From positions 381,307 to 445,306 of the forward strand of contig CP179888.1 in the NCBI GenBank assembly GCA_047456305.1: a DNA stretch of 64,000 bases, in the 5' to 3' direction. The notes below the pieces were generated by a model, which saw nothing but the letters and a program-made list of their open reading frames with translations, did no database searches and was not told the DNA's origin. Source of the stretch: Candidatus Nealsonbacteria bacterium. GTDB taxonomy: Bacteria > Patescibacteriota > Minisyncoccia > Minisyncoccales > CAZKCU01. Within the stretch, counting starts at the first letter, position 1; each line of letters starts with the position of its first letter. The translations under genes were made by a program, and so were the position numbers. Shown piece by piece: positions 57 to 63,415 of this stretch.

Positions 57-1661
57 TTGAGTGAGAATAAACAAGTAGAAAAAGAGATGCCGCTCGAAAT
101 AGAAGAAGGGTTACCCTTCACAGAGGAAATTGTTGCAGCCCAAGTTGTACCCACGAAGGGTCCAAATTGGACATTAATTTTGGCTATTATCGGTATAATT
201 GCAGCAATAGGAGTAGTGATATACTTCCTTTTCAAAAGGTGCAAAAAGGGGTTAAAGTTAAATAGGATAACTATTTTCTTGTTTATCCTTTTAATAATAT
301 TTTTATTAATTGGTACCTGGTTATATTTTTATATATCTCAAAAAAATGATACCGCGATTTATGATAGATCATCCGAATTTGTTTATACTAAAATACTAAA
401 AGTAATATCGCTTACTCCTGATCTTGTTTTGGTTGTTACAGAAAACCCAAAAGGACCGGCCGAATTAGGACCAACTGGAATATACAACTTTGATGCTGTT
501 TTTGCTGCTACCGAGAACCCGGATGACACAGATTCGAGCCTTGAAGTAATTGTTACCGAAAAAGAATTAATTAAATTATATGATAAAAAGATACTTGGTT
601 TTTATGTCCGCATAGGAGGATTACAAGGAGATGTTGAGAAAGCTAATGAGAGATATATATTTAAATTTAGAGGACTAAAATATCTCAAATTATTATTTGA
701 GGAAGGGTATCTTGACAAAGTTGATGTGGGTTTTTTCTACCCAGATCTTTTCGTAACAGAAGAAGGAAGAACAAAAGCATTTATTTTTGCCCATACTTTT
801 ATTACCTTTAAGCACGAACTGACACATCACAGATTTGCGACCGACCCGCTTTACCAGCAGGAAGTTATAGGAAAATGGAGAAGATTAGAAAATGAAAACA
901 AAAAGAAGATAATAATGGCCCTAATTAAGAGAGACTACTCTTTTGGGAGGGAAATAGATCTAAAAGAATGGAAAAAGTTAGACGAAGGTCAAAGAAATAA
1001 AAAAATAGAAGAGCTAATTAAGAAAGGTGAGAGACTATACGAGTTCATCGAAAAGGGTGAGAACCTACACGAGTTAATTCAAAAGAACAAGGAGATGGAA
1101 GAGGTAATCTTAAAGAATAGGTCACTAGTCATAGCCATTGATGAATGGATTGCACACTGCAACGAAGATAATAAGTATGATGCATTTGAGGGCGGTATAG
1201 ATGTTATGCAGGATATTACACAGAAGGACGGGGTTTGGGATAAACATTGGTATAACCTTGTAGATAAAAACGGAAAAGAACTTTTTTATAATGATAGTAA
1301 CGATGATGAAACATATAAAAAATATAGAGACAAACATCCTGAAAAATTTAGGACTACAGAAAAGCAGCCAAAGAGAGAAGAAGATATTCAGGAACCAGAA
1401 ATTTTTAACGAATTAGATGCAAACAAGTATTATAGTATCCATGGTACTTGTCCTCCAGGATATGAGTTGGTTGAATATCCGGGTGAGCGTGATATTCCGG
1501 GCCCAACCTATGCGGAGGCAACAAGACGTCTAGAGGAAGCAGGAAAGAGACTCGAGGAAGCTCCAAAAAATGATCCAGAAGCCATAATAAGAGCCATAAA
1601 AGAACTTAACGAAGCTACATTACTTTATCATCATGGACGCAGATGTGAAAAACAAAAATGA
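57..1661 (+). CDS. hypothetical membrane-anchored protein with an HExxH (HELTH) metallopeptidase-like motif; possibly 5'-partial
   Basis: Long ORF. The frame is open back to base 3, so the real start may lie upstream of the window (in-window candidates are TTG 57 and ATG 87). It has two hydrophobic helices, then a large soluble part containing FKHELTHHRF. No family recognised. Confidence 0.5.
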   Translation: MSENKQVEKEMPLEIEEGLPFTEEIVAAQVVPTKGPNWTLILAIIGIIAAIGVVIYFLFKRCKKGLKLNRITIFLFILLIIFLLIGTWLYFYISQKNDTAIYDRSSEFVYTKILKVISLTPDLVLVVTENPKGPAELGPTGIYNFDAVFAATENPDDTDSSLEVIVTEKELIKLYDKKILGFYVRIGGLQGDVEKANERYIFKFRGLKYLKLLFEEGYLDKVDVGFFYPDLFVTEEGRTKAFIFAHTFITFKHELTHHRFATDPLYQQEVIGKWRRLENENKKKIIMALIKRDYSFGREIDLKEWKKLDEGQRNKKIEELIKKGERLYEFIEKGENLHELIQKNKEMEEVILKNRSLVIAIDEWIAHCNEDNKYDAFEGGIDVMQDITQKDGVWDKHWYNLVDKNGKELFYNDSNDDETYKKYRDKHPEKFRTTEKQPKREEDIQEPEIFNELDANKYYSIHGTCPPGYELVEYPGERDIPGPTYAEATRRLEEAGKRLEEAPKNDPEAIIRAIKELNEATLLYHHGRRCEKQK

Positions 1662-4979: not shown

Positions 4980-5723
4980 TTGACTCTCTTTTTTATTTTT
5001 GGTATAGTTTTCTTATTACTAATTATGGACAAATTTTTTTTAATTCAACTTACTACTAATCTTTATTACCTGACTTTGCTTTTTCCCAAAAAAGAGCCCT
5101 TGAGGTATAAAATAAGAGAATTGGCCGATGACATTTTAGCCGCCCTAATTTCATCTCCCCATCAACATAAATGTGACGAAGCAAGGCCTCGTCACATTAA
5201 CACTGGCGCTGATATTATACAAGAATTGGAAATTCTTGATAGCTTCTTTGAGGTGGCAAAAGCCCAAAACTGGGTAAGTCCGGCTGAAACCTTGAAATTA
5301 CAGCAAGAATATAGTAAGCTAAAAGAGAATTTGAAAACGCAGGTTAATTTTAATAGAAGTTTAGTACCAGCGACCCAAGTTAGAAACGTAACGAAGCAAG
5401 GCCTCGTTAAATTAAGTCCTCGGAGTGAAGGGGATTGCGAGAGGAGCCCCAAAGCTATTTTTGCTGAAAGGAGAGTAGTCAAAGAGGATAAATCCTCTTC
5501 TTCACCCTTCGCTGCGGCTCGGCTAAATGAACGCCAGAAAAAAATCTTGGGAATTTTAAAAGAAAGAGAAAAAGCCCAGGTTTGGGAAATTAAGAAAATT
5601 TTTCCCGAAGTGACCAAAAGAACTCTCCGAAGAGATTTTGAACAATTGCTAAAACAAGGATTTATTGAAAGAATAGGAGAAAAGAATGACACTTTTTACC
5701 AAGTTAAATCCAATTTTGACTAA
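4980..5723 (+). CDS. putative transcriptional regulator with a C-terminal DeoR-type winged HTH; carries repeat insertions
   Basis: The C-terminus NERQKKILGILKEREKAQVWEIKKIFPEVTKRTLRRDFEQLLKQGFIERIG is a DeoR-like wHTH. The likely start is ATG 5025 (MDKFF). The central part is built from GC-rich hairpin repeats. Confidence 0.55.
   Translation: MTLFFIFGIVFLLLIMDKFFLIQLTTNLYYLTLLFPKKEPLRYKIRELADDILAALISSPHQHKCDEARPRHINTGADIIQELEILDSFFEVAKAQNWVSPAETLKLQQEYSKLKENLKTQVNFNRSLVPATQVRNVTKQGLVKLSPRSEGDCERSPKAIFAERRVVKEDKSSSSPFAAARLNERQKKILGILKEREKAQVWEIKKIFPEVTKRTLRRDFEQLLKQGFIERIGEKNDTFYQVKSNFD
5478..5528 (+). repeat. family-A palindromic element, in frame (VKEDKSSSSPFAAARLN)
   Basis: GTCAAAGAGGATAAATCCTCTTCTTCACCCTTCGCTGCGGCTCGGCTAAAT. 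It has the same architecture and reading frame as the copies in murB, recJ and mnmA. Confidence 0.85.
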
Positions 5724-7219: not shown

Positions 7220-8002
7220 ATGACTGAAGCTGAACTCATTAAAAAAATTCAAGAACTCAAGCAGATTCAACCCAGAAAAGACTGGGTTTTGTTTACTAAA
7301 AGCCAGATTTTAGGAGAAGAACCAAAAATGGACGTGTCCCTATTTTCGTTGGTTGGCAAAATTTTCCCGATGGCGCAAATTTTCTCACCATTTCGTTTCC
7401 TTAATTTTAAAAATTTAAAACCAGTTTTAGTTACCTTAGCTTCTCTATTTATTTTAATATCCGGGGCTTTTATTTTTGCCCAAAATTCTCTACCCGGCGA
7501 TTTACTTTTTCCAGTAAAGAAAATTACTGAAAGGAGCCAGTCAGTTTTTGTCTCTGAGGACAACGTAATAAAATTTGAGTTGGATATTGCAGAGAAACGA
7601 TTAGACGACCTTGCTAAGGTTGCCGAGAAGAACTCAGTGAAGAATTTAGCGCCGGCAATTAACGAATATAAAGAAAGCGTGTCTGATGTGGCAAAGAGTT
7701 TGGCAGTAGAAAATAATAAAGAGGTTGTAAAAGAGATAGTTAGTGGAGTGAAAAAATTAGAAGAGAAAGAGCAGCAAGTGAGAACGCTGGGAGCAGTAAT
7801 AGGAGAAAATGAGGAGTTAGACAAAGCCGTTGCTCAAAAAATGGTAGAAACCTTGGAGATCCTTATTAAGGATTTAGAAGGGAGGTCTTTAACAGAAGAC
7901 CAGCAAGAGGATTTTGCTAAAGCCAAAGAATATTTTGAAGCCGGTGATTATAACCAGGCGCTTATAGAACTTCTGAATTTTGGTCAGGAAAGGGAGGATT
8001 AA
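7220..8002 (+). CDS. anti-sigma-like membrane protein (DUF5667-like)
   Basis: Short N-terminal cytoplasmic segment, one TM helix (PVLVTLASLFILISGAFIF), then a helical extracytoplasmic domain. It lies downstream of the ECF sigma gene. Confidence 0.5.
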   Translation: MTEAELIKKIQELKQIQPRKDWVLFTKSQILGEEPKMDVSLFSLVGKIFPMAQIFSPFRFLNFKNLKPVLVTLASLFILISGAFIFAQNSLPGDLLFPVKKITERSQSVFVSEDNVIKFELDIAEKRLDDLAKVAEKNSVKNLAPAINEYKESVSDVAKSLAVENNKEVVKEIVSGVKKLEEKEQQVRTLGAVIGENEELDKAVAQKMVETLEILIKDLEGRSLTEDQQEDFAKAKEYFEAGDYNQALIELLNFGQERED

Positions 8003-8076
8003 TTTTGCTCAAAATCAATAGATTGAAAATTGGAACGTCGCGAAACTCGTGACTATTACGTAAGGTCGCGAGACAC

Positions 8077-8104
8077 CAAGCACATAACAAAGATTATGTG
8101 CTCG
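8077..8104. repeat. family-B hairpin (GAGCACATAA...TTATGTGCTC)
   Basis: CCAAGCACATAACAAAGATTATGTGCTCGG. Related copies lie at 29306-29332 and, degenerate, inside pgk at 43738-43769. Confidence 0.75.
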
Positions 8105-8158
8105 GATAAATGGTCGGCGCGACAGAAATAAATTATTAATTAATAATTCAGAAAATAA

Positions 8159-10162
8159 ATGAAAAAATTAATGAAAAAGATTGTAGTAAGTATAGTGGGT
8201 TTATCAATGGTACTGATGATGGGGGGAATTGCTCAAGGCGCAACAGTTGAAGAGCTTGAAGATCAAATTGCTGACCTGTTAGCTGAAATAGAAGACTTGC
8301 AAGCTCAAGTAGCTGGGCTTACGGGAGAAGGTGTGGGCGTTTCTTGCACTTTTACTCGTAATCTTTACCCAGGAATGAGTGGCGCCGATGTCAAATGCTT
8401 GCAGGAATACTTAAATGACGCTGGCTACGCTGTAGCTGCTTCAGGTGCTGGCTCTCCTGGTAATGAGACCGAATATTTTGGTCCTCTTACCCAGGCTGCA
8501 GTTGGAGCATGGCAAGACGCTAACGGCGTTGTCTATGGAGCATATAAAGGTTATTTTGGTCCTCTTTCCCAGACTAAATACGACGCGTTAGCTGCCGCAG
8601 CTCCTGCTGAAGAGGAAGAGGAAGAAGAGGAAGCCGTCCTTGAAGGTGGCGCAGGTTCAATTACCGACGCCGACTTTATCTCTTCTCTCAACAACGAGGA
8701 GGTTGGCGAGGGCGCAGAGGATATAGAAGTCGCCGGTCTTGAGATCGAAGCAGATGAAGGTTCGGACATCGAACTTACGGCAGTGCGTCTTGTCTTTGTA
8801 AAGGAAAGCACGGGTGAGGATTCATCCGATGACTTCGAGGACTACGCCGAGGATGTCTCTCTCTGGTTTGACGGAGAGGAAGTTGCTCGCGTTGACGGAG
8901 ATAAATTCGACGACGACAATGACTACTCGCGAACGATCACTCTTGCCTCCGGTGCGGTTATTAGAGCGGACGAGACCGAAGAGCTTGTGGTAGCTGTTTC
9001 GGGAATCGGTAACCTTGACTCTAATGATGCAGGGGAAGAGTGGACCGTTGAGTTTAATAGCATCCGCTTCCGTGACGCGCAAGATGCAGTCATCACGGAT
9101 GCTAACACGGGCGACATTGATGAGGCTACGCGCGAGTTCTCCTTTGAAGTTTTTGCTACTGCAGCAGACATTGATTTGAAGATTCGCGCTGACGATGATG
9201 AAGTCAACGACGCTCACGTGATCAACGTTGATGACGACAATGACACTGATGATGTTGAGGTTCTCTCATTCACCATTGAGATTGAGGGAGATTCCGATGT
9301 AGAGCTTAAGAAGCTTCCAGTAGAGTTTGATAGTGTTAATACTACCGCAACTACATACATCGATGACATGGTATCCAGCGTCCAGCTTTTGATGGATGGT
9401 GACGAGATCGGTAGCGAAAACCTCGCTGCTGACGATGATGACAACCAAACCGTTACCTTCGAGGATCTTGACGTCGTGCTTGAGGCTGGCGAGACATACG
9501 ATTTCCTCGTAACCGCTAACTTCAACGCGCTTGACGGAAGCGACCTTGTTGCCGGTGACACGTTCGCAGCAAATATTGGCTCAACAGAACGAGGCAACAT
9601 TGATGCGGAAGACGAGTCCGGAGAGGATCTTGGGACGGGCGACATGAGCGGTACAGTAACCGGTGGAGCCCACGCGATTTATGACATCAGCTTCACCTTC
9701 GAGTTGGAGAGCATATCATCCTCAATCACTACAGCGCGCGACCCAGGCACCAGTTGTTCAGCTGATACTGCTACCTATGCCATTAAGTTTGAATTAACTG
9801 CTTTTGATGGTGATATAAGTATTGACAGAAGCAGTCAAGAAGATGACACTGATGCGGCTGGCCAAGGTGTTGAGTATGTTGTTACCAATACTACTTCAAG
9901 CTCAGCAACCAGCTCATTGACTTCAACTGCAGGTGATAACCCAGATGTTAGTGGTGCGGCATGGCTTCTTGAAGAAGGTGTGCCTGAAGAGTTCACCCTT
10001 AGTGTGGCAGTTACACCGAATGCTAATCACTTCGCGAAGGTTTACCTTGAATCAATCAACTGGGATTATGATACAGATCAGACCGCAACCTTGTTCTACA
10101 CAGCAGGACTTGGCGAAGAAAAAACATCAACAGATGAGTGTTACTTGAGTGTCACCCCCTAA
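8159..10162 (+). CDS. secreted, highly acidic surface protein with an N-terminal coiled coil and a peptidoglycan-binding domain
   Basis: Signal peptide (MKKLMKKIVVSIVGLSMVLMMGGIAQG), coiled coil (VEELEDQIADLLAEIEDLQAQVAGL), PG_binding_1-like segment (LYPGMSGADVKCLQEYLNDAGY...GPLTQAAV), an E8 run, then about 480 aa rich in D/E/T/S/A. Confidence 0.7.
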   Translation: MKKLMKKIVVSIVGLSMVLMMGGIAQGATVEELEDQIADLLAEIEDLQAQVAGLTGEGVGVSCTFTRNLYPGMSGADVKCLQEYLNDAGYAVAASGAGSPGNETEYFGPLTQAAVGAWQDANGVVYGAYKGYFGPLSQTKYDALAAAAPAEEEEEEEEAVLEGGAGSITDADFISSLNNEEVGEGAEDIEVAGLEIEADEGSDIELTAVRLVFVKESTGEDSSDDFEDYAEDVSLWFDGEEVARVDGDKFDDDNDYSRTITLASGAVIRADETEELVVAVSGIGNLDSNDAGEEWTVEFNSIRFRDAQDAVITDANTGDIDEATREFSFEVFATAADIDLKIRADDDEVNDAHVINVDDDNDTDDVEVLSFTIEIEGDSDVELKKLPVEFDSVNTTATTYIDDMVSSVQLLMDGDEIGSENLAADDDDNQTVTFEDLDVVLEAGETYDFLVTANFNALDGSDLVAGDTFAANIGSTERGNIDAEDESGEDLGTGDMSGTVTGGAHAIYDISFTFELESISSSITTARDPGTSCSADTATYAIKFELTAFDGDISIDRSSQEDDTDAAGQGVEYVVTNTTSSSATSSLTSTAGDNPDVSGAAWLLEEGVPEEFTLSVAVTPNANHFAKVYLESINWDYDTDQTATLFYTAGLGEEKTSTDECYLSVTP

Positions 10163-28162: not shown

Positions 28163-29068
28163 ATGAGTATTAAAAAACTTTTACCAAGAGTTAAAACGAA
28201 TACTTCTTTAAAAAACTACACTACTTTTAAGATTGGGGGTCGGGCTAAATACTTTTATGTAGCAAAAACAAAAGAGAATTTGGTGAAAGCAGTAAGGGTG
28301 GTAAAGAAAATGAAATTGCCATTTTTTGTTTTGGGAGGAGGCTCAAATTTATTGATTTCTGACAAAGGGTTTAAAGGACTAGTTATAAAATTCGGTCAAC
28401 CGCTTTCTTTATATGTTTCAAAAGGCCTAGAATGGGCAGTTGGTATTCCCGGAACTATTCAGGGAGCAGTTTGGAGTAATGCTGGCGCTTTCAAAAAGTC
28501 AATGAAAGATGTTGTTAAAGAAGTTGAGGTTTTTGATACTAAAACAGGAAAAGTTAAAATTTTTAAAAATAAAGACTGCCGGTTTTCCTACAGAAATAGC
28601 ATTTTCAGAAAGGAAAAAAATTTAATTATTCTTTCGGTAAAAATCAAATCGAAAAAAAGTAATACCAAAAAAATAAAGCAATATTCAGACTATAGAAAAA
28701 AAACTCAACCATTAGAGTTTCCTTCAGCAGGAAGTATTTTTAAGAATCCGAAGAACTTAGTGGCAGGAGAATTATTGGGCGAAGAAGATAAACCTTCTTC
28801 TTCAGCCTTCGCTGCCGCTCGGCTAATTGGCGAAGAAGATAAACCTTCTTCTTCAGCCTTCGCTGCCGCTCGGCTAATTGAAGAATGCGGATTGAAAGGA
28901 AAAAAAATTGGAGAGGTTCAGGTTTCTAAAAAACATGCAAATTTTATTATTAATTTAGGAGATGGAAAGGCAAGAGATGTTAAAAAATTGATAAATTTAA
29001 TAAAAAGAAAAGTGAAAAGTAAATTTGGAGCAAATTTGGAAGAGGAGATTCAATATTTAGGTTTTTAA
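28163..29068 (+). CDS. murB: UDP-N-acetylenolpyruvoylglucosamine reductase MurB (with a 34-aa repeat insertion)
   Basis: LKNYTTFKIGGRAKYF, FFVLGGGSNLLISD, PSAGSIFKNP, IEECGLKGKKIGEVQVSKKHANFIINLG. Confidence 0.93.
   Translation: MSIKKLLPRVKTNTSLKNYTTFKIGGRAKYFYVAKTKENLVKAVRVVKKMKLPFFVLGGGSNLLISDKGFKGLVIKFGQPLSLYVSKGLEWAVGIPGTIQGAVWSNAGAFKKSMKDVVKEVEVFDTKTGKVKIFKNKDCRFSYRNSIFRKEKNLIILSVKIKSKKSNTKKIKQYSDYRKKTQPLEFPSAGSIFKNPKNLVAGELLGEEDKPSSSAFAAARLIGEEDKPSSSAFAAARLIEECGLKGKKIGEVQVSKKHANFIINLGDGKARDVKKLINLIKRKVKSKFGANLEEEIQYLGF
28778..28879 (+). repeat. family-A palindromic element, two perfect tandem 51-bp copies, in frame in murB
   Basis: GGCGAAGAAGATAAACCTTCTTCTTCAGCCTTCGCTGCCGCTCGGCTAATT occurs twice (28778-28828 and 28829-28879). 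Each encodes GEEDKPSSSAFAAARLI. Confidence 0.95.
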
Positions 29069-29246: not shown

Positions 29247-29294
29247 ATGGCAAAGAAAAAAAAGAAAAAGAAGAAGAAAAAGAAGAAGAAATAA
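29247..29294 (+). CDS. 15-codon micro-ORF, MAK(13) (poly-lysine); coding status uncertain
   Basis: ATG GCA followed by 13 AAG/AAA codons and TAA, immediately upstream of a strong terminator hairpin. Confidence 0.2.
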   Translation: MAKKKKKKKKKKKKK

Positions 29295-29305
29295 AATCTT
29301 CTCAG

Positions 29306-29342
29306 CCGAGCACATAAATCTTATGTGCTCGGTTGTTTTTTT
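29306..29342 (+). terminator. intrinsic terminator (family-B hairpin)
   Basis: CCGAGCACATAA-atc-TTATGTGCTCGG is a perfect 12-bp stem, followed by TTGTTTTTTT. Confidence 0.8.
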
Positions 29343-29366
29343 GTATAGATTTGTTAATATTGAATG

Positions 29367-29420
29367 ACGAAGAGAATTTCATTCTCTTCTTTACCTTCGC
29401 TTCCTTCGGAAGCTCGGTGT
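29367..29420 (+). repeat. family-A palindromic element, intergenic copy just upstream of hpf
   Basis: GACGAAGAGAATTTCATTCTCTTCTTTACCTTCGCTTCCTTCGGAAGCTCGGTGT. It artificially extends the hpf ORF at the 5' end. Confidence 0.8.
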
Positions 29421-29867
29421 ATGAAGATTATTATAAAAACGAAAAATATAAAACTAAACCGGCCCCTCAAGGATTATATTGAGGAAAAACTAAACTCTCT
29501 TGAAAAATTTTTAAAAACTTTTCAAAAGAAAATATATTATAATCATTTTTTTGGCAAAGGAAAGCCAAGAATTGAGGCCTGGGTAGAAATTGGGAAGGAA
29601 AGTTTACATCATCGAAAGGGGCCTGTTTTTCGGGCCGAAGTTCAAATGAGATTTCCGGGAATGAGTTTGAGAGCAGAAGCTGTTTCAAAAAATTTAAGAA
29701 CAGCTATAACCGAAGTAAAGGATGAATTACAGAGAGAATTTAAACAATATAAAGAAAAAATAACTTCTTTGGGCAAAAGAAAAACCAGGGCTCTAAAAAA
29801 AGACCTCCGTCTATCTCCTCAGGCGAGGTTTTATAGAAAGGGAAGAATAAGGGAAGAGGGAATATAG
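29421..29867 (+). CDS. hpf: ribosome hibernation-promoting factor / ribosome-associated inhibitor (HPF/RaiA family)
   Basis: MKIIIKTKNIKLNRPLKDYIEEKLNSLEKF... is typical of the family. The ORF-track start at 29364 lies inside a repeat, so ATG 29421 is preferred. Confidence 0.8.
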   Translation: MKIIIKTKNIKLNRPLKDYIEEKLNSLEKFLKTFQKKIYYNHFFGKGKPRIEAWVEIGKESLHHRKGPVFRAEVQMRFPGMSLRAEAVSKNLRTAITEVKDELQREFKQYKEKITSLGKRKTRALKKDLRLSPQARFYRKGRIREEGI

Positions 29868-29890: not shown

Positions 29891-29920
29891 TAAACCCCGT
29901 TAGAGACTAACGGGGTTTAC
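29891..29920. terminator. palindrome TAAACCCCGTTAG-AGA-CTAACGGGGTTTA between convergent genes
   Basis: Perfect hairpin shared by the hpf 3' end and the stop region of the minus-strand ATPase gene. The same arm sequence recurs at 34338-34403. Confidence 0.6.
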
Positions 29921-32123
29921 TAAAATCGATATTATATCTACCACATCTTGAGCCCAGAGAGGCAATTTTTTTTCCATCTCTTATTATATTTATTACCTCA
30001 CAACGATTTGAACACTTATGACAAGTAAAAGAAGCGGTAGTGTATTGGAAGTTAGCTAAATTAAATCCTTTAAAAAGAGATTTAGTTGGGTTGGCTTCTT
30101 GGGCAAGAATAGCCGCCCCAATTGCACCAATTATTGGGGCATGTTTGGGGACAATTACTTTATGGGAAAGTTCTTCCTCCAATGCTTTTACCACTGCTTT
30201 GTTAAGAGCAACACCTCCCTGGAAAATATAAGGTGGTTTTATATCTTTTCCCTTAGCAACCAGGGCAAGATAATTTCTGACAAGACTTTTAGCTACTCCT
30301 GATAAAATATTTTCTTTTGCCACTCCGGCATTCAATTTATGGACACAGGAGGTTGTTCCAAAGACAGCACATTTAGCGCTAATTGTGGCAGTTGATTTTG
30401 CTTTAAGGGCAAGATTACCAAATTTTTCTATTGGAATTCCTAATCTGAAGGACACATTCTCAAGGTAGGCGCCACAGCCGCCAGAACAATTATGAACTGT
30501 CAAAAGATTAGCTATATATGAATTATCATCTTCTGTTTTTAGATTATACACCTTTCCTTTAAAGTCTTTTTTTTCAATTTGTTCTATCGGCTCGAACAGC
30601 CAATTAGAATGAATAAATGACTTAAAAGGACTTCTCTTAGATACTTTTTTATCGATAAGTCTATTAATATCAGTGCCATAAACTGCAATATGATAACTGA
30701 TATTTCCACTCGTGGTCTTTTGGTTAGAATTGAAAAGTTTACATTTAATCTGATTTCCTAACAATATCCAATATAACTGATGTGCTAATTTTTCAGACGT
30801 CGTTGTTGCTGTATAGCTATTAGCGCTTTTTCCGTGTCTTTTGTCTTTTTTAATTCTAAGACAACCATCTCCTATAAAAAAACCCTTCACCAATTCCAGT
30901 TGTAGCTTTGGAGCCAGAGTCATAAGTTCTGCTGCTATTTCTTTTTTATTGCAATATTCACCACAGAGATAGTTAAATATAGAAGCGAGACTTTTATTAT
31001 AGACTTCTAACTTTAAAGTTTTGTGTTGTGGTAAAAAAGAAACTTTTGTGGATACATCAAAATTTTTTGTTAAAGTCTGAATTATTTCATCCACGTAATT
31101 TTTTTCTTTTATATTAAAAACAAATATGATACCGGCAATATGCTTAATTTTTTTGTTAGTTCTTTTTTTATTCCAAGAAAGATTGCCTTCAGCTAAATAA
31201 TAGCCTAAAACACGCAATAGTTTTGGGGTGAAGGAGAATTTACTAACTTCTCTCAATTTATGATGTTTAAGATATATAGTTTTACCTTTCCAATCTAGAT
31301 ATTCTTTGTTGTTTATTTCTTGTGGTAAGGGAGTAACAATAAAATCTCCCATTTTTAACTCTTTGGCTTGAATAAATTCTGGTTCATAAAACATTTTAGA
31401 ACCTTTCTTACATCTATGCCTTTTGCACCAATCTACATTTCTTTCTCCAAGTGGTTTACATACTCTAATCTTTTCTATTTTTCCTTCCCGAAAATCCTGA
31501 TAACATTTAATAGTATCTCTTTTCAAAGCCAAAACAGGATGTTCTGGTGTTATTTTTAATTCTTTCTTTCCTATCTTGATTTTTAATATTTTTCCACTAT
31601 AATTTCGAATAAACTTATTTTTCACTTTTTTGAATTGGCCGCGATGTGTTAATACTTTTTCATTAGGTTTAACATCTTTTATGGGTTTTGGTATGTAACT
31701 CTCAGCAGTAATTTTTGTATCGTCAGGCACACAAATTTGATTCATACCAAAGTCTATTAAAACCTCGTTTCTCAAAATAAGAATTTTACTGTCTTCTTGT
31801 CCAAGGTCAAAAATAGTTTGAGCATTGGGTATAAAATGCAAGGTGCCAACAGCATGGGCAAGGATTTCAGTTTTTGTTATATCAGCGCCAATAAAAGCCC
31901 CTCCTAATTTTCTACCTGCCCCGGTAGTTCCAACAGCTGTGATTTCAACATCTTTCCTGAGTTTTTTTAATCCCTTTTTGATGGTTTCAATCACTCCAAG
32001 GTTTTTTATATAAACCCAATCAATTAATTTACCTTCTTTTGTTATTAAGGCAAATTTTATTGTTCCATTTCCGATGTCAAGGCCCAAAGCTGCTTTTATT
32101 TTGCTGATTTTTTTCGTTTCCAT
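29907..32123 (-). CDS. BcrAD/BadFG-type ATPase (acyl-CoA dehydratase activase-related) interrupted by an intein
   Basis: N-extein is LGLDIGNGTIKFAL...AVGTTGAGRK...DLGQEDSKILIL...FGMNQI. C-extein is CSGGCGAYLE...SAKCAVFGTTS...IFQGGVALNKAVVKALEEEL...GAIGAAILA, plus a C-terminal CHKCSNRC...RCGRY Cys cluster. Confidence 0.85.
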   Translation of the reverse strand: METKKISKIKAALGLDIGNGTIKFALITKEGKLIDWVYIKNLGVIETIKKGLKKLRKDVEITAVGTTGAGRKLGGAFIGADITKTEILAHAVGTLHFIPNAQTIFDLGQEDSKILILRNEVLIDFGMNQICVPDDTKITAESYIPKPIKDVKPNEKVLTHRGQFKKVKNKFIRNYSGKILKIKIGKKELKITPEHPVLALKRDTIKCYQDFREGKIEKIRVCKPLGERNVDWCKRHRCKKGSKMFYEPEFIQAKELKMGDFIVTPLPQEINNKEYLDWKGKTIYLKHHKLREVSKFSFTPKLLRVLGYYLAEGNLSWNKKRTNKKIKHIAGIIFVFNIKEKNYVDEIIQTLTKNFDVSTKVSFLPQHKTLKLEVYNKSLASIFNYLCGEYCNKKEIAAELMTLAPKLQLELVKGFFIGDGCLRIKKDKRHGKSANSYTATTTSEKLAHQLYWILLGNQIKCKLFNSNQKTTSGNISYHIAVYGTDINRLIDKKVSKRSPFKSFIHSNWLFEPIEQIEKKDFKGKVYNLKTEDDNSYIANLLTVHNCSGGCGAYLENVSFRLGIPIEKFGNLALKAKSTATISAKCAVFGTTSCVHKLNAGVAKENILSGVAKSLVRNYLALVAKGKDIKPPYIFQGGVALNKAVVKALEEELSHKVIVPKHAPIIGAIGAAILAQEANPTKSLFKGFNLANFQYTTASFTCHKCSNRCEVINIIRDGKKIASLGSRCGRYNIDFSKPR
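30489..31733 (-). mobile_element. 415-aa intein with a LAGLIDADG homing-endonuclease domain
   Basis: Begins with Cys (CVPDDTKI, codon 31733-31731). TxxH block (ITPEHPVL). LAGLIDADG motifs LGYYLAEGN and VKGFFIGDGC. Ends ...YIANLLTVHN, followed by the +1 Cys (codon 30488-30486). Confidence 0.9.
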
Positions 32124-41723: not shown

Positions 41724-41851
41724 TAAAAAAATGAATAGTCAAAGAGAACTCCGTTCTCTTTTCCATCTTCGTTTTAATAAATTAAAACTCGATGAATAAA
41801 AACTCGAGTTATAGTCAAAGAAGGTAAACCTTCTTTTTCATCTTCGTTTTT
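41724..41851 (+). repeat. tandem duplication of a hairpin unit related to family A
   Basis: ATAGTCAAAGAGAACTCCGTTCTCTTTTCCATCTTCGTTTT...AAAACTCGATGAATAA and ATAGTCAAAGAAGGTAAACCTTCTTTTTCATCTTCGTTTTT...AAAACTCGATGAATAA. Confidence 0.8.
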
Positions 41852-43477
41852 ATGAATAAAAACTCGATGAATAACGATATAATTTTTTTTGCTGAAACCA
41901 CTTTTCGTAATATCAGGAAAAAATTCGGCATAAAAACCGACGATAGACGTCGGCATATTTATGTTGTTGGGAAAACCGGTATGGGTAAAACAGTGATGAT
42001 GGAAAATATGGCAATCCAGGATATAAAGCAGGGCAAGGGAATTGCTTTTATTGATCCCCACGGAGAGGCTGCTGAAAACCTTTTAAATTTTATTCCTTCT
42101 GATCGAATTAATGATGTTATCTATTTTAATCCGGCTGATTTAAATTATCCCATCGCTTTTAATGTTATGGAAAAAGTTGATTTAGAGCATAGACATTTGG
42201 CGGCCTCGGGCCTAATGGGGGTTTTTAAAAAAATCTGGCCCGATGTCTGGTCAGCCAGAATGGAATATATTTTGAATAATTCCATTTTAGCTTTACTTGA
42301 ATATCCGGGCTCAACCCTGCTTGGAGTAAACCGAATGCTGGCTGATCCCGATTATCGAAAAAAAGTGGTGGAGAGGATCACTGACCCGGTGGTTAAAGCT
42401 TTTTGGATTACTGAATTTGCTCGTTACACCCAGAGATACGAAGTTGAGGCAACAGCTGCCATCCAGAATAAAGTTGGTCAGTTTATTTCCGCCCCTTTAA
42501 TTAGGAATATTATTGGTCAGGTTCAATCTTCGATTGATATGAGGAAAGTAATGGATGATGGCAAAATCTTAATTGCTAATATATCTAAAGGAAAGGTGGG
42601 AGAGGATAATTCCTTGCTTTTGGGAGCTCTTTTGATTACCAAAGTGCAGTTAGCTGCGATGTCAAGAGTAGATATGCCTGAAGAGCAGAGACGAGATTTC
42701 TTTTTATATGTTGATGAATTTCAGAACTTTGCCACTGAATCTTTTGTCAATATCTTATCTGAGGCAAGGAAATATAGGTTGTCTTTAGTTTTAGGGCATC
42801 AATACATTGCTCAGATGGAAGAAAAGGTAAGAGATGCTGTTTTCGGCAACATTGGAACAATAGTTTCTTTTAGAGTTGGAGCTGAAGATGCTGAATATCT
42901 GGAAAAAGAATTTGTTCCTGAATTTACAGCTACTGACTTAGTTAATCTTGGAAAATATAATATCTATTTGAAATTAATGATTGATGGAATAGCCGGCAGA
43001 CCTTTCTCGGCTGAAACCTTGCCTCCAATGTTAAAACCGGAGAAATCGAATCGAGAGAAGATTATTAAAGTTTCCCGCGAAAGATATGGGACTCCTCGGC
43101 AAGTTGTTGAGGAAAAAATTAAGCGCTGGATAGGAACTTTAGAATTTCCGGTTAGTCCCCAGTCCGTCTCCCCGGTTCTTTATGATGCCAAATGTTCTCT
43201 CTGCGGAAAATGGACCAAGGTTGTTTTTCCTCCTGATGGGGTCCGGCCGGTTTATTGTAAACCCTGCCGAAAAAAAATGGAAAGAGAGAAGGAACAAAGA
43301 GAAAATGGAGTTATTTCCCTGAAAGAGGCAACTAAAAAAGAGCCTGTTTCTTTTTTGCCCTCAAAAAAAACTTTCGGGCGAGAAAAAACTGAAAAAGAGA
43401 AAAAAAGAAAAACCGTTAACTTAGAAGAATTAAAAAAAACCCTGGAAGAATCCCTGAAAAAAAGAAAAAAGCAATAA
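41852..43477 (+). CDS. TraD/VirD4-like (type IV coupling protein / HerA-FtsK superfamily) P-loop ATPase with a C-terminal zinc ribbon
   Basis: Walker A VVGKTGMGKT, Walker B FFLYVDEFQNF, LVLGHQY, and C-terminal CSLCGKWTKVVFPPDGVRPVYCKPCRKK. Confidence 0.7.
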   Translation: MNKNSMNNDIIFFAETTFRNIRKKFGIKTDDRRRHIYVVGKTGMGKTVMMENMAIQDIKQGKGIAFIDPHGEAAENLLNFIPSDRINDVIYFNPADLNYPIAFNVMEKVDLEHRHLAASGLMGVFKKIWPDVWSARMEYILNNSILALLEYPGSTLLGVNRMLADPDYRKKVVERITDPVVKAFWITEFARYTQRYEVEATAAIQNKVGQFISAPLIRNIIGQVQSSIDMRKVMDDGKILIANISKGKVGEDNSLLLGALLITKVQLAAMSRVDMPEEQRRDFFLYVDEFQNFATESFVNILSEARKYRLSLVLGHQYIAQMEEKVRDAVFGNIGTIVSFRVGAEDAEYLEKEFVPEFTATDLVNLGKYNIYLKLMIDGIAGRPFSAETLPPMLKPEKSNREKIIKVSRERYGTPRQVVEEKIKRWIGTLEFPVSPQSVSPVLYDAKCSLCGKWTKVVFPPDGVRPVYCKPCRKKMEREKEQRENGVISLKEATKKEPVSFLPSKKTFGREKTEKEKKRKTVNLEELKKTLEESLKKRKKQ

Positions 43478-44696: not shown

Positions 44697-45932
44697 ATGG
44701 AAATAAAAAATCTTAAAAAAGCAGCTGAGCGAATTTTAAAAGCGATAAAAAAGAAGGAAAAAATTATTATTTATGGTGATGCTGATTTAGATGGAGCAAC
44801 CTCGGTAATTATTTTAAAAGAAAGTATTCAAAATTTAGGCGGAGAGGTTTCGGCAATTTATTTTCCCGATCGAGAAAAAGAAGGATATGGGATAAATAAA
44901 ACAGCCCTTGATTTTTTAAAAACCATTAGTCCTGCTTTGTTGGTTGCCTTAGATTGTGGAATTGGGAATTTTGAGGAAGTGAAAATAGCTAAAACTTTAG
45001 GTTTTGAAGTAATAATTATTGACCATCATCAAATCTTAGATAAGTTACCTAAAGCCCAAATTATTGTTGATCCTAAACAAAAAGGAGATAAATATCCATT
45101 TAAAGGGCTAGCTACCGTAGGAATAATTTTTAGGCTTTCCCGACTTCTTTTAAAAGAAAAAATGTCAGAAGTAATGAGAAAAAATTTCTTGGAATTAGTG
45201 GCTTTGGGCACTATCGCCGATATGATGCCAGAAGAAAATGAAAATCAGCTTTTTATAACGGAGGGCTTAGAGTCATTAGAAAATTCCTGGCGACCAGGAA
45301 TTAAAGTATTTTTAAATAGCATCCCTTTTACTTTCCAAGAGAAAAAATATCCGAATTTCCGTCAGAAAATCTCTAAAATAATTTCTATTTTAAATGTCAG
45401 GGATATTGAGAATAAAATGCCAGCTTCATTTAGAGTTTTGGCAAGTTCCTCTTTGAAAGATGCAAAAAAGATTATCGAAAAACTTTTAAAGAAAAATGAA
45501 CTAAAAAAAGAAAAAATAAAGGAAATGATTCAGGAGGTCGAAGAAGATTTATTTTCTTCTTCCCCCTTCGCTGGCGCTCGGGAAACGGGCGATGAAGCTA
45601 AAGCTTCATCTTCACCCTTCGCTAACGCTCGGGTAAATGAAGAAATTATTTTTAAAGGAAAATCTAATTGGGAATTAATTTTACTCAGTCAGGTAGCTTC
45701 AATAATTTGTAATAAATATAAAAAACCTACTTTTCTTTTCAAAGAGGGAGAAACAAAGAGCCAGGGAACGGTAAGAATACCCAAGGGATTAGATGGAGTG
45801 AAGGCTATGATGAGTTGCCGTCAACTTCTGGAAACTTATGGAGGTCATCCTGCAGCTGCAGGTTTTTCATTAGAAAATGAGAATTTAGAAAAATTTAGAG
45901 AATGTCTAAATAAATATTTTAAAAAAATATGA
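44697..45932 (+). CDS. DHH/DHHA1 phosphoesterase, RecJ-like
   Basis: IIIYGDADLDGATS, VIIIDHH, GGHPAAAGF. Confidence 0.8.
   Translation: MEIKNLKKAAERILKAIKKKEKIIIYGDADLDGATSVIILKESIQNLGGEVSAIYFPDREKEGYGINKTALDFLKTISPALLVALDCGIGNFEEVKIAKTLGFEVIIIDHHQILDKLPKAQIIVDPKQKGDKYPFKGLATVGIIFRLSRLLLKEKMSEVMRKNFLELVALGTIADMMPEENENQLFITEGLESLENSWRPGIKVFLNSIPFTFQEKKYPNFRQKISKIISILNVRDIENKMPASFRVLASSSLKDAKKIIEKLLKKNELKKEKIKEMIQEVEEDLFSSSPFAGARETGDEAKASSSPFANARVNEEIIFKGKSNWELILLSQVASIICNKYKKPTFLFKEGETKSQGTVRIPKGLDGVKAMMSCRQLLETYGGHPAAAGFSLENENLEKFRECLNKYFKKI
45537..45638 (+). repeat. two adjacent family-A palindromic elements, in frame in the recJ-like gene
   Basis: GTCGAAGAAGATTTATTTTCTTCTTCCCCCTTCGCTGGCGCTCGGGAAAC and GGGCGATGAAGCTAAAGCTTCATCTTCACCCTTCGCTAACGCTCGGGTAAAT. 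They encode VEEDLFSSSPFAGARETGDEAKASSSPFANARVN. Confidence 0.9.
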
Positions 45933-46457: not shown

Positions 46458-46460
46458 GAT

Positions 46461-46892
46461 GTCCCAGTAAGTCTGTAAGCCGAATTCTGTCTTGCCCTCC
46501 CAACTTTTGCCACGGGATTTCAAAAAAATCAGCAAATTCTTTGGCAAAAGTTAGGAGGGTGAAGTGATTATCTATCTAGGCCTGAGATTGCTCCCAGGCT
46601 CAAGCGAACTACTTTGAACCCTTTCAACTTTGCGTAAAAAGTTGCGGGGCTTTGTTCTTGCTCTTGGGCAGGAATTTAACCGTTTCACTCCCGGAGTTAC
46701 CTCCAGGATTCATCCAATTATTGGATGCCTCTTGTCTTACGATTTGAGGCGTCACTGTTCGCATCCCTCGTCTCGCGACGTACGGGTATTGCCCGTTACC
46801 ATTTTAACCAGTTTTAAAACTGGTAAGAGTTCGGACTTTCCTCCCCCTTTTTCTGATTAGAAAAAGAGAGCAATCACTCAACTTACAAGGAC
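46461..46892 (-). ncRNA. rnpB: RNase P RNA (bacterial type)
   Basis: The minus strand contains GGGGGAGGAAAGTCCGAACTC (the universally conserved GAGGAAAGUCC region) near the 5' end and ACAGAATTCGGCTTACAGAC (the ACAGAAnnCGGCUUA region) near the 3' end. P1 pairs GTCCTTGTAAGT at the 5' end with ACTTACTGGGAC at the 3' end. Confidence 0.9.
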
Positions 46893-54150: not shown

Positions 54151-54207
54151 AGATATAGCGAATAACAGGGTGGGGCTATGTCCAGAATACGAGTAGTTAA
54201 GCAAGAA

Positions 54208-54231
54208 GCCCATCGCTGGGTGATTTTTTTT
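54208..54231 (+). terminator. intrinsic terminator
   Basis: GCCCA-tcgc-TGGGT followed by T8. It shares the 15-nt string AAGCCCATCGCTGGG with the terminator at 2523. Confidence 0.5.
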
Positions 54232-54365
54232 CGGCCTTGACTTTTTCCTGAATTGTTATTAAGATATAAAATCACGAGAGACGAAGGAGGACGGTATGGG
54301 AAGTGCCTTAAAAAGTGAATATGGATTAAAACAAAAAGACAGAATTAAAAAAAAGGAGGTAACAA

Positions 54366-56318: not shown

Positions 56319-56331
56319 AAAGGAGAAAGAT

Positions 56332-57489: not shown

Positions 57490-57513
57490 ATCTCATTAAA
57501 CGATGATGTGAAA

Positions 57514-57550
57514 GGCGCTAACAATTCAATGTTAGCGCCATTTCTTTTTT
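57514..57550 (+). terminator. intrinsic terminator after the LeuB-like gene
   Basis: GGCGCTAACA-attcaa-TGTTAGCGCC is a 10-bp stem, followed by ATTTCTTTTTT. Confidence 0.8.
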
Positions 57551-60228: not shown

Positions 60229-60248
60229 TACAGAATATTTTTTCACTT

Positions 60249-60304
60249 ACCCGAGCCGCAGGCGAAGGGCGAAGGGTGAAGAAAAGGACGAAGTCCTCTT
60301 CGCC
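60249..60304 (-). repeat. family-A palindromic element, intergenic, reverse orientation
   Basis: Plus strand reads ACCCGAGCCGCAGGCGAAGGGCGAAGGGTGAAGAAAAGGACGAAGTCCTCTTCGCC, the reverse complement of the hairpin + CTTCGC...GGCTCGGGT architecture. Confidence 0.8.
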
Positions 60305-60475
60305 TTTCCAATATAGGTTTTGAAATTGTCCAGTCATACTGGAGTCCCGGCTCGCGAGCTTCGCTCGCGGGCTTTTAAAATAAGTAAAAATTTGTAATAA
60401 TGATTAGACGAACTTATGTGAGAAGAAATTAAAAAAAATGACTAGTACTTTGTGATTTATTTGTAAGATAAACTC

Positions 60476-62096: not shown

Positions 62097-63415
62097 AAAA
62101 TTTAAGTAAAAGGAAAATTGTGGTTGCAATGTCTGGTGGGATAGATAGTTTCGTGGCGGCAACCCTTTTGAAAAGAGTTGGAGTCGATGAACTTCGTTCA
62201 TCTTCACGCACGAGCTCGTTAGAGCGAGTAAGAAAGAATTTTAATTCTTTCGGCTTCGCTAACGCTCGCGTTTTTGTCGATGAACTTCGTTCATCTTCAC
62301 GCTTCGCTAACGCTCGCGTTTTTGTCGATGAACTTCGTTCATCTTCACGCTTCGCTAACGCTCGCGTTTTTGATGTGGTGGGAGTTTTTATGAAACTTAC
62401 TGATCTGCCAAGGTTTAAAGAAAATGAAATGAGAGCTAAAAAAGTTGCTAAAATTCTGGGGATTCCGCTTTTAGTTTTAGATTTAAGAAGGGAATTTAAA
62501 GAAAGAGTTATTAATTTGTTTTTAAAAGAATATAAATTAGGACTAACTCCTAACCCTTGCATAGTCTGTAACAAAGAAATAAAATTTGGATTATTATTAG
62601 AAAAAGCTCTTTCTTTGAATGCAGACTGTATAGCTACTGGTCACTATGCAAGAATTCGAAAATTCGCTGTGTGTGAACAGTGGGCAAATTCGAAACGGAT
62701 TCGTTATTCGTTGATGACTGCTAAAGACAAAGAGAAAGACCAGTCTTATTTTTTATGGCAACTTAATCAAAAGCAATTAAAACATATTTTATTTCCCATC
62801 GGAGATTACACTAAAACTCAAGTTAGAATTATATCAAAAAAATTTAAATTGCCTGTTTTGAAAATTCCAGAATCTCAGGAAATTTGTTTTATTAAGACAA
62901 CTATAAATGATTTTTTAAAGAAATATCTCAAACCAAAACCCGGCCAAATTATTTACTCAACACCCAAGGTTAAGTATCGTGTAATTGGGCGACATCAAGG
63001 ATTAGCCTTTTATACTATTGGACAGCGAAAGGGGATAAAACTTCCCGGAGGACCATATTGGGTTTTGGATAAAGATTTGAAAAAGAATGCTTTAATTGTT
63101 ACCAAGAACGAAAAGGACTTATATAAAAAGGAATTGATTGCCAAGAAGGTTAACTGGATTTCTGGACTCCAACCCACCCTCCGCCCTCCCGCTCGCCAGA
63201 GGCGAGCGGGCCCCTGCCCCAAATTGCCATTAAAAATAAAGGCAAAAATTCGCTATCGTCACGAACCTGCTTCAGCCGTAATTACCCGAAGTTTAAAGTC
63301 TAAAGTTAGTTTAAGGTTTACTCAGCCCCAGCGGGCAATTACTCCTGGCCAGTCAGTAGTTTTTTACAAAGGTCAGGAAGTCTTGGGCGGAGGAGTAATT
63401 AGTGAGTCCTATTAA
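62093..63415 (+). CDS. mnmA: tRNA-specific 2-thiouridylase MnmA (about 80 aa longer than usual because of repeat insertions)
   Basis: PP-loop VVAMSGGIDSFVAA, TPNPCIVCNKEIKF, ATGHYAR, KDQSYFLW, ITPGQSVVFY...LGGGVI. Confidence 0.92.
   Translation: MKNLSKRKIVVAMSGGIDSFVAATLLKRVGVDELRSSSRTSSLERVRKNFNSFGFANARVFVDELRSSSRFANARVFVDELRSSSRFANARVFDVVGVFMKLTDLPRFKENEMRAKKVAKILGIPLLVLDLRREFKERVINLFLKEYKLGLTPNPCIVCNKEIKFGLLLEKALSLNADCIATGHYARIRKFAVCEQWANSKRIRYSLMTAKDKEKDQSYFLWQLNQKQLKHILFPIGDYTKTQVRIISKKFKLPVLKIPESQEICFIKTTINDFLKKYLKPKPGQIIYSTPKVKYRVIGRHQGLAFYTIGQRKGIKLPGGPYWVLDKDLKKNALIVTKNEKDLYKKELIAKKVNWISGLQPTLRPPARQRRAGPCPKLPLKIKAKIRYRHEPASAVITRSLKSKVSLRFTQPQRAITPGQSVVFYKGQEVLGGGVISESY
62183..62371 (+). 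repeat. three tandem family-A elements in frame in mnmA (the first carries a nested 45-nt insertion)
   Basis: GTCGATGAACTTCGTTCATCTTCACGCTTCGCTAACGCTCGCGTTTTT occurs at 62276-62323 and 62324-62371. Copy 1 (62183-62275) is interrupted by ACGAGCTCGTTAGAGCGAGTAAGAAAGAATTTTAATTCTTTCGG. Confidence 0.95.
62666..62687 (+). repeat. family-C core inside mnmA (in frame, AVCEQWAN)
   Basis: GCTGTGTGTGAACAGTGGGCAA. The same 22-mer, with 1-2 differences, occurs at 40341-40362 and on the reverse strand at 33274-33295. Confidence 0.8.

Follow-up and report, generated by a model that had tools for sequence, protein, structure and literature searches.

The window analyzed here is a 64,000-nucleotide stretch of contig CP179888.1 from Candidatus Nealsonbacteria, a lineage of ultra-small Parcubacteria in the candidate phyla radiation (CPR), and its central feature is a tandem insert in murB, the gene for UDP-N-acetylmuramate dehydrogenase. 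The predicted MurB is 100% identical to a protein of that name from a Candidatus Nealsonbacteria metagenome-assembled genome, has both PF01565 and PF02873, and also matches MurB chains in the PDB. Within the gene, window positions 28778-28879 form a perfect tandem of 2 x 51 nucleotides (nt) that adds 34 residues to the protein; Tandem Repeats Finder (TRF) places the repeat at 28778-28880 (period 51, 2.0 copies, 100% matches, score 206), and the program and a direct reading of the sequence together bear out the identical pair described in a first-pass annotation of this DNA. Both units are in frame, with the open reading frame (ORF) reading ...NLVAGELLGEEDKPSSSAFAAARLIGEEDKPSSSAFAAARLIEECGLKG... 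at this point, and the peptides LIGEEDKPSSSAFAAAR and PSSSAFAAAR belong to the predicted translation of the insert. The first unit folds into two hairpins, GAAGAAG...CTTCTTC and AGCC-TTCGCTGCCGCTC-GGCT. These 102 bases are best read as a selfish DNA repeat, short and non-autonomous, that is present here in two copies.

The insert splits a segment, AGxLIExxGLKG, that had been said to be contiguous in characterized MurB proteins, and structural alignments agree: chain residues 231 to 235 of 4PYT correspond to query residues 197 to 235, i.e., 34 extra residues in the query, and 1HSK is uninterrupted at the insertion point (PPGHFAGKLIQDSNLQG / PPGHFAGKLIQDS). An AlphaFold model built from the MurB alignment gives insert residues 200-232 a predicted local distance difference test score below 50 and no secondary structure, consistent with the loop placement that the annotation had raised. 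Outside the insert the modeled fold is mostly confident; residue 235 opens the next helix, in which the native AGxLIExx start is replaced by the last residues of copy 2 (AAR) plus LIEEC. On the strength of this model, the insert is best read as a tolerated surface loop that is predicted to be disordered.

A multiple alignment of 36 MurB relatives, which are 65 to 93% identical to the window protein, reveals strong variation in what is found at this point. The site is empty in 12 sequences (e.g., P0005, 87% identical to the window protein), holds one unit in 10 (e.g., P0004 and P0008), and holds two units in 6 (P0001-P0003, P0016, P0018, and P0106); the 12 empty sites show that MurB orthologs do not generally carry homologous residues here. 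Two further sequences are other or unclear cases (P0023, and P0021, in which a reverse-type remnant is followed by one unit), and six have an unrelated extra segment of the FPELKEF... type, as at the insertion point of P0051 and P0055 (e.g., FPELKEFNKRKLIPAG), indicating that the loop is naturally permissive and variable in length. P0018 (two units) and P0114 (one unit) are otherwise the same protein, and in P0106 the first unit carries a further nested insertion. The unrelated residues in some orthologs, and in E. coli-type MurB, are what could recommend the view that no DNA was inserted and that the segment is instead a native, lineage-specific variable loop like the extra one in type I MurB. 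Against this stand the close orthologs that lack the segment while others have one or two copies, the recurrence of the 45- to 51-nt unit in unrelated genes and intergenic DNA, and the presence of the same family at two other MurB positions in other lineages (in one case as VDELRSSPRSANARV, present once or three times, and in the other as a reverse-orientation form, RASEGSE...DEDENEV), and we consider the chance of a native loop to be practically negligible. Short lineage-specific inserts unlike this family also occur elsewhere in MurB, in P0030, P0109, and P0120 (NPSPFPKGDRV) and in P0118 (QSAKQSFMLGRAHKSMCSD); these could represent further repeat families.

In nucleotide sequence, the empty murB site reads T-TA-ATAGAAGAA and the filled site T-TA-TTGGGCGAAG...CGGC-TA-ATTGAAGAA; locus L121, for example, has the empty form GGT TAT T-TA-ATA GAA GAA TGC, and the window has GAA T-TA-TTG GGC GAA G...CGG C-TA-ATT GAA GAA TGC. 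Locus L123, whose MurB is 89% identical, has near-identical flanks, but its first unit is a different member of the family, 48 nt long with the hairpin GAAGAGAG/CTCTCTTC, in which two base pairs are compensatorily changed. Two copies at the murB site are also present in independent assemblies (P0002, P0003/L123, L162, and L213). The identity of the two units in the window, and the fact that just one contig has exactly this MurB protein, are what an artifact of assembly might leave behind, but the 102-nt pair is shorter than a typical read, the reading frame is preserved, and the independent assemblies come from other samples and hold one or two copies, often as slightly different units; that the duplication or the insert is artifactual is therefore very improbable.

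The element is not confined to murB. Its core, CTTCGCTNNCGCTCG, occurs eight times in the window with at most one mismatch, always on the plus strand, where shuffled sequences lead to an expectation of 0.04 and none of 100 shuffles reached eight. A covariance model built from 68 distinct copies of the element recovers eight canonical copies together with diverged ones, about 13 in 64 kb (Table 1).

Table 1. The murB gene and copies of the element in the window (bit scores and E values are from the covariance model)
Feature	Position	Strand	Description
murB, UDP-N-acetylmuramate dehydrogenase	28163..29068	+	301-aa ORF, 34-aa insert included
murB copy 1	28778..28828	+	51 nt, codes for GEEDKPSSSAFAAARLI; TRF, direct sequence, 70.8 bits, single-strand DNA fold
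murB copy 2	28829..28879	+	Same sequence as copy 1 (TRF 100%); 62.3 bits
Single copy in HTH_DeoR protein ORF 4980-5723	5475..5526	+	In frame; core GCGGCTCG, one mismatch; 58.4 bits; Pfam
First of two adjacent copies in DHH/DHHA1 ("recJ-like") gene 44697-45932	45534..45584	+	In frame; 59 bits; Pfam
Second copy in DHH/DHHA1 gene	45585..45636	+	Hairpin GATGAAGC/GCTTCATC, stem ACCC/GGGT; 77.3 bits; fold
Composite insert in mnmA (62093-63415)	62180..62372	+	64 aa; TRF period 48, 2.5 copies, 100%; Pfam tRNA_Me_trans
Diverged reverse copy within hairpin 2 of first mnmA copy	~62207..62250	-	Model match 62219-62257, 20.4 bits, E = 1.6e-4
Variant copy upstream of ribosome-hibernation-factor (hpf-like) gene	29363..29421	+	22.5 bits, E = 3.4e-5; fold z-score -4.7
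Degenerate AT-rich intergenic copy	41735..41796	+	AT hairpin replaces core center; 19.3 bits, E = 3.5e-4
Second degenerate copy, mostly intergenic	41811..41859	+	36.6 bits, E = 1.3e-9; fold z-score -4.2
Reversed intergenic copy	60247..60307	-	Part of core duplicated; 36.7 bits, E = 1.3e-9
Weak candidate, old decayed copy	747..794	-	Antisense in ORF 57-1661; 15.4 bits, E = 0.005, rough calibration; not established

The second copy in the DHH/DHHA1 gene is the top model match of the window and differs from its neighbor at 14 positions. The mnmA insert is laid out as a forward copy split by a nested reverse copy (62180-62275), followed by two identical 48-nt units (62276-62323 and 62324-62371). 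Closing stems of the second hairpin are as had been described, AGCC/GGCT in murB, ACCC/GGGT in the DHH/DHHA1 gene, and ACGC/GCGT in mnmA, and the intergenic matches at 41735-41796 and 60247-60307 uphold the claim that copies also lie between genes. The first-pass annotation had further counted at least four other host genes in the window. Three of these are clear, HTH_DeoR, DHH/DHHA1, and mnmA; the fourth copy, in which the apical stem of hairpin 2 is enlarged (GCTTCC-TTCG-GGAAGC), lies upstream of the hpf-like gene, whose ORF matches Pfam S30AE from residue 22, downstream of the copy, and it is probably part of the 5' leader of that gene. The copy at 41811..41859 keeps the two-hairpin layout, and its end overlaps the start of ORF 41852-43477. 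Two metagenome loci share insertion sites with the window: L238 has the same site in the DHH gene (window positions 45534-45636) with a different core in the first copy, and L223 has one unit where the mnmA gene of the window has about 3.5 (62180-62372). In these sequences copy content thus appears to turn over fast at fixed sites.

Units of the family are 45, 48, or 51 nt long and consist of two successive hairpins separated by the linker TTC. Hairpin 1 has a perfect 7- to 9-bp stem that opens with GAWGA and closes with TCWTC, and its distal pairs and loop are highly variable. Hairpin 2 is imperfect; its closing stem has 4 bp (for example, ACCC/GGGT, ACGC/GCGT, or AGCC/GGCT) and encloses the conserved TTCGCTNNCGCTC and the interior pattern TTC-GC-TNNC-GC-TC. 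Of the two ends of the element, G[GT]CGAWGA... and ...CGCTCGGKWA, neither is an inverted repeat of the other. In a gapless alignment of the 68 copies, standard pairs fill 92.6% of the stem cells, compared with 77.7 +/- 0.8% in shuffles and at most 58.8% in each of the controls in which the pairing partner was slid; 114 cells are changed on both sides, compared with 34.5 +/- 4 in shuffles, and double changes are found at five of the nine pairs of helix 1 and three of the four pairs of helix 2. Both helices thus covary strongly, substantiating the description of a variable but complementary hairpin followed by a core with a covarying closing stem. RNAalifold and single-strand DNA folding return the same two hairpins, with DNA fold z-scores of -2 to -4.7, and both hairpins persist in diverged copies, including those with a longer stem in place of the apical part of hairpin 2, indicating that the shape is retained beyond sequence alone.

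The annotation took this covariation to mean that the structure is under selection. The maintenance of the hairpins stands, but selection may share its role with other processes; the palindromes could be corrected in a self-templated way or replaced by other members of the family, either of which might add to the covariation of the stems. Mismatches of the G.T and A.C types do not differ significantly in number in the stems once a subfamily-fixed C.A pair is removed (23 versus 16, p = 0.34), and this lack of strand asymmetry means that nothing indicates which strand folds or whether the folded form is RNA or DNA. The highly conserved 13-nt core, the maintenance of both helices, and the similar Ser/acidic peptides given by both open frames could also be expected of a unit that is kept for a function of its own, whether as a peptide module, as an mRNA hairpin, or as a site for DNA uptake or protein binding, and the general reliance of CPR bacteria on DNA uptake adds some appeal to this idea. 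We nonetheless regard it as improbable: copies occur in either orientation, use several frames, and are also found between genes, which leaves no peptide or mRNA structure common to all, AT-rich decayed copies exist, and the gain and loss of whole units between near-identical genomes is not how uptake sequences arise.

The family extends well beyond the window. A scan of metagenome contigs with the exact pattern TCTTCNNNCTTCGCTNNCGCTCG returned at least 120 stretches, and the loci fetched from it (median GC 0.37) contain 126 distinct copies. In 100 metagenome loci, amounting to 692 kb of low-GC contigs, the covariance model gave 251 matches at E <= 1e-3, a density of about one element per 5 kb when the copy that recruited each locus is discounted; further copies thus exist beyond those that the annotation listed. 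A looser pattern run over genome contigs yielded mostly chance matches in high-GC genomes, with two useful Nealsonbacteria loci. Across 2.9 million viral contigs the exact pattern matched once, by chance, at a stretch with no hairpin, and carriage of the element by phage is not supported. No Rfam family reached its gathering score at the element, where the sub-threshold matches (E of about 0.4 to 0.5) are attributable to chance. Searches of available full texts, outside of which most subscription journals lie, found no paper linking palindromic, REP (repetitive extragenic palindromic)-like, or RPE (Rickettsia palindromic element)-like elements to Patescibacteria, CPR, Parcubacteria, or Nealsonbacteria, in keeping with the statement that no such family was known to have been described for this kind of genome. 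The element family is found in large numbers in Candidatus Nealsonbacteria and in related CPR-like contigs of low GC.

Reading frames around the element were scored in 132 non-redundant contexts with an ORF threshold of at least 80 residues, and 111 of these contexts (~84%) lie in ORFs. The sense frame (xSSSxFAxAR) is used in 71, one antisense frame (...TRAxAKGEDE...SSS...) in 29, and other frames in 11, leaving 21 with no ORF of that length. These counts modify the earlier claim that copies share one orientation and frame; true in the window, it is a bias and no rule, and even the window has a reversed copy at 60247-60307 and one mnmA copy nested in reverse. A frame is open through the whole element in all 111 ORF-assigned copies, both preferred frames yield peptides rich in Ser, Glu, Asp, Ala, and Arg, and 25 of 28 tandem spacings are divisible by three, as are most non-ORF copies, of which 12 of 19 are 45 or 48 nt long. 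The open frames and the unit lengths in threes suggest translation of the inserts and, for the family itself, a quantization in codons.

The alternative that the murB insert is not translated, being skipped by the ribosome or removed from the RNA as in T4 gene 60 or the mitochondrial "byp" elements, draws on a superficial likeness. The byp elements are GC-rich hairpins in coding sequence, and so is the element described here. Neither bypass nor splicing would require lengths in threes or an open frame, however, and the units are divisible by three and open across the element in every ORF-assigned copy, which makes an untranslated insert extremely improbable. The same two properties (units of 45, 48, or 51 nt that are open in the frame used) set aside a translational bypass element as the class of the repeat, and its size and open frame likewise set aside an intein or intron as the murB insert. 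A CRISPR-like array was also rejected, the units being contiguous with no spacers.

Evidence that the units move comes from three comparisons of filled and empty sites, with flanks 84 to 100% identical over the compared stretches, in which the filled site has gained exactly 48 nt bordered by a direct repeat of 3 to 4 nt, GAG or AGGG. In the first, locus L184 is filled (...CA AG^GGCAAAG...CGGGAG^GGAGAT; here and below, ^ marks a join) where L199 is empty (...CCAAG^GGAAAT); in the second the roles are reversed, L199 being filled (TTTTTGAG^GGCGAAG...CGGGAG^TCCGAA) and L184 empty (TTTTTGAG^TCCGAA); and in the third, L124 is filled at a site like that of L199 just given, and L193 is empty (GAG^CTGGAA). 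L184 and L199 each hold a copy that is absent from the other, indicating that these events are recent. Together with the presence of zero, one, or two copies in MurB orthologs and the preponderance of copies in ORFs, the exact gains support the earlier comparison to the in-frame insertion of RPEs.

The flanks of single copies define a target. The two bases upstream track the 3' end of the copy's own subfamily (TA with TA in 25 cases, AG with A[GA] in 19, crossed in 1; Fisher p = 8e-12). On the downstream side, a pyrimidine stands at position +7, the base at +8 is a purine without exception, and position +9 is A in 53 of 55 sense copies, 22 of 24 antisense copies, and all 14 non-ORF copies, a signal that codon usage cannot account for because the +8 and +9 bases recur in every context. 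The target motif is thus (G/A)AG or GTA followed by NNY-RA, which the murB site, TTA^ATT GAA, fits, and the upstream and downstream bases together show that the target resembles the head-to-tail junction of the element itself (...GGGAG^GGCGA... or ...GGGTA^GTCGA...). Among 28 adjacent pairs of units, 8 are identical, 7 differ at one to three positions, and 13 differ at more than three.

Each insertion adds exactly one unit at a short target that mimics this junction, with the adjacent 3 to 4 nt repeated on both sides. We propose that an inserted copy would recreate a good target at its own edge, such that further copies could land alongside and build up arrays of unlike units; this would explain the tandem arrays and the 13 clearly unlike pairs, and nested insertions within hairpin 2 would fit the same process. 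Slippage or unequal exchange between units would give identical arrays, the murB pair and the paired 48-nt units of mnmA among them, and it best explains the eight identical and seven near-identical pairs. Since lengths come in threes and both of the open frames are hydrophilic, copies arriving in tolerant surface loops would survive and be translated as disordered loops rich in Ser, Glu, and Ala, with frame- or fold-breaking copies purged by selection.

Spread might instead need no dedicated enzyme and proceed by microhomology-mediated template switching, by gene conversion or recombination with look-alike sites, and by slippage in arrays. Points in its favor are a target that has 3 to 4 nt plus RA in common with the junction of the element, the frequency of identical tandem arrays, the lack of any transposase tied to the element, and copies at the murB site that differ between close relatives as they would under gene conversion. 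Exact single units at unrelated loci with only about five specified bases offer very little homology for such a process, however, while the requirement for Y-R-A located 3 nt downstream from the join looks like recognition by a protein, and the maintenance of hairpin 2 with its conserved unpaired bases would be left unexplained. On balance, enzyme-free spread strikes us as rather unlikely, albeit a serious competitor for this step.

Weighing these lines of evidence, we assign a probability of roughly 0.8 to the reading that the murB insert is a selfish insertion element of the REP/RPE-like kind, tolerated as a disordered loop, with its identical pair generated by local duplication. The central proposal of the first-pass annotation, a palindromic family inserted in genes in the manner of the Rickettsia elements, found support on every test run, with corrections on orientation, the number of host genes, and covariation. 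Several points weigh against our reading or parts of it. The murB site might have received one insertion long ago and then undergone precise losses and duplications, in place of repeated insertion, and what points to translation of the insert is its open frame and unit lengths only. The 64-kb window encodes no detectable Y1 transposase, and the element never flanks the RAYT (REP-associated tyrosine transposase)-like genes found in related genomes. These are flanked by other palindromes, TGTTTAAGG-N4-CCTTAAACA at the Y1_Tnp genes in L048, L245-L247, and L251-L256 and different ones in L132, L216, and L248-L250 (the last three loci have the same gene family with no Y1_Tnp match on record), and TGTTTAAGG-N4-CCTTAAACA is not dispersed. 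Nor did local GC skew, which follows gene orientation and not element orientation, reveal an orientation bias relative to replication once gene orientation was accounted for; together with the lack of strand asymmetry in the stems, this means that a single-stranded intermediate receives no support from these indirect signs.

The weakest step of the proposed mechanism concerns the enzyme. Under our preferred reading of a selfish element, mobilization would most likely occur in trans, by an enzyme that recognizes hairpinned single-stranded DNA, with HUH/Y1 transposition of the IS200/IS605 or RAYT type, in which insertion occurs beside a short specific sequence and excision is precise, as the model. 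Mobilization by such an enzyme is a tentative suggestion, one that we consider possible with the odds leaning against it. Three element-bearing loci encode Y1_Tnp genes, one detected by motif scan and two more by tblastn, and the Y1_Tnp (RAYT-like) genes lie at L048 6372-7214, L245 3850-4767, L251 3955-4795, L132 7218-8040, and L216 10641-10883. In L048 and in two of the three distinct regions fetched, the gene family is located between ligA and ftsW/rodA, and in the third region it adjoins pilin and prepilin-peptidase genes; a fixed chromosomal position would be expected of a domesticated RAYT, by analogy with known systems, and the link from these genes to the element is speculative. In L132 and L216, an extra copy of the flanking palindrome lies in frame within the transposase gene itself. 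A more elaborate proposal, which we judge unlikely, is that the element represents a distinct REP-like type suited to life inside the genes of ultra-compact genomes, with lengths fixed in threes, one open hydrophilic frame on each strand, and site-specific integration from a circular or tandem single-stranded intermediate into junction-mimicking targets, and driven in trans by a domesticated RAYT-like Y1 enzyme that in some genomes would lie between ligA and ftsW.

Several other features of the window deserve mention. A second kind of in-frame selfish insert lies 0.8 kb from murB, where a gene for a BadF/BadG/BcrA/BcrD-type ATPase (29907-32123, minus strand) is split by an intein with a LAGLIDADG homing endonuclease (Pfam Intein_splicing and LAGLIDADG_3). 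The stretch that separates murB from the hibernation-factor gene contains an AAG/AAA-rich simple repeat (29252-29296). Two GC-rich hairpins, each with a T run after it, at 60347-60376 (CCCGGCTCGCGAGCTTCGCTCGCGGGC-TTTT) and 29305-29345 (CCGAGCACATAAATCTTATGTGCTCGG-TTGTTTTTTT) look like intrinsic terminators, and the former includes the string CTTCGCTCGCG, which recalls the core of the element. The RNase P RNA match at 46460-46889 (minus strand) spans 430 nt compared with a 367-position model and therefore contains extra sequence. Finally, GC content is 0.44 to 0.48 at 8001-10000 and 54001-58000, compared with about 0.34 elsewhere in the window; these segments encode a PG_binding_1 protein (8159-10162) and an aconitase and isocitrate/isopropylmalate dehydrogenase pair (54366-57489), and their horizontal acquisition is possible.

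The genomes of CPR bacteria (Patescibacteria) are tiny and densely coding, and their proteins often contain unexplained insertions. A repeat that is present at about one copy per 5 kb, and mostly in genes, would explain part of these insertions, and if the distinct REP-like type outlined above is real, it would keep supplying CPR proteins with new surface loops on a major scale. Repeats of this sort make proteins look more divergent than they are and disrupt both alignments and assemblies, and masking them is needed in CPR phylogenomics and structure prediction. The family also provides a second, independent case, besides Rickettsia, of selfish palindromes that colonize coding sequence in reduced genomes, and its recent filled and empty sites and clear target motif make mobilization approachable by experiment, unlike that of most REP-like families.

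That the element is real and abundant is well supported, and its general kind, REP/RPE-like, is already known; it is set apart by its host group, small size, two-hairpin layout, direct arrays, intragenic bias, and junction-mimicking target. Like the GTAG- and CGTC-tagged REPs (PMC3733652), it is a short stem-loop repeat, and some REP families are also found inside genes, where single copies, dimers, or clusters encode 20 to 30 residues or more (Di Nocera et al. 2013, PMC3733652). Many element copies have (G)TAG directly 5' of the hairpin, recalling the REP tag (upstream of the hairpin, units of the 45-nt class have G in 13, T in 12, A in 21, and G in 21 of 22 copies), whereas the largest 48-nt subfamily has GAG instead. 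REPs are mostly extragenic and usually form inverted dimers (REPINs), whereas ~84% of element copies lie in ORFs and the arrays are direct and head to tail; the conserved second hairpin is a further difference. Genes of the RAYT kind do exist in related genomes, as in REPIN/RAYT systems (PMC3116915). Classification as a REPIN or REPtron was nonetheless rejected, as the RAYT-like genes of related genomes are flanked by other palindromes, the 64-kb window encodes none, the copies are mostly intragenic, and the arrays are direct.

Insertion sequences (IS) of the IS200/IS605 family, with HUH/Y1 transposases, have hairpin ends, need no true target duplication, and are gained and lost precisely. The single-strand transposition of REP/RAYT systems likewise involves hairpin ends without terminal inverted repeats and a short specific sequence at the join (PMC3733652). 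The element shares hairpins that are not terminal inverted repeats, a short specific join, and precise gain and loss, a likeness that is compatible with this route without being exclusive to it, but it is far smaller, no cognate transposase gene with the element's ends was seen, and no strand or replication bias was detected. MITEs, or miniature inverted-repeat transposable elements, which add coding sequence in Coxiella burnetii (PMC5896051), and the RU elements of enterobacteria (PMC2759123) resemble it as small non-autonomous intragenic repeats that add peptide segments. In contrast to MITEs, the element has no terminal inverted repeats, is much shorter, and comes in lengths quantized in threes, and no parent insertion sequence was seen for it. 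A MITE was rejected because terminal inverted repeats are absent and because the 3- to 4-nt flanking repeat is not arbitrary, tracking the element's own 3' end.

The closest parallel is with the RPEs, which were reportedly described by Ogata et al. in 2000. Like them, the element is a palindromic repeat of a reduced genome that lies in frame in housekeeping genes as well as in intergenic DNA, adds extra hydrophilic segments at tolerant positions, and has no transposase of its own. RPE-1 is roughly 100 to 150 nt long, and the units of the element are much shorter (45 to 51 nt), with two hairpins and frequent head-to-tail tandem arrays. The host phylum (CPR/Parcubacteria) is unrelated, and the element has a defined target motif that mimics its own junction. 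Two properties by which RPEs are recognized (see also PMC3733652 and PMC2635572) were found here, namely, covarying hairpins and in-frame copies in genes whose orthologs include insert-free forms. By analogy, the element appears to work like an RPE, to which we liken it by behavior and not as a homologous member.

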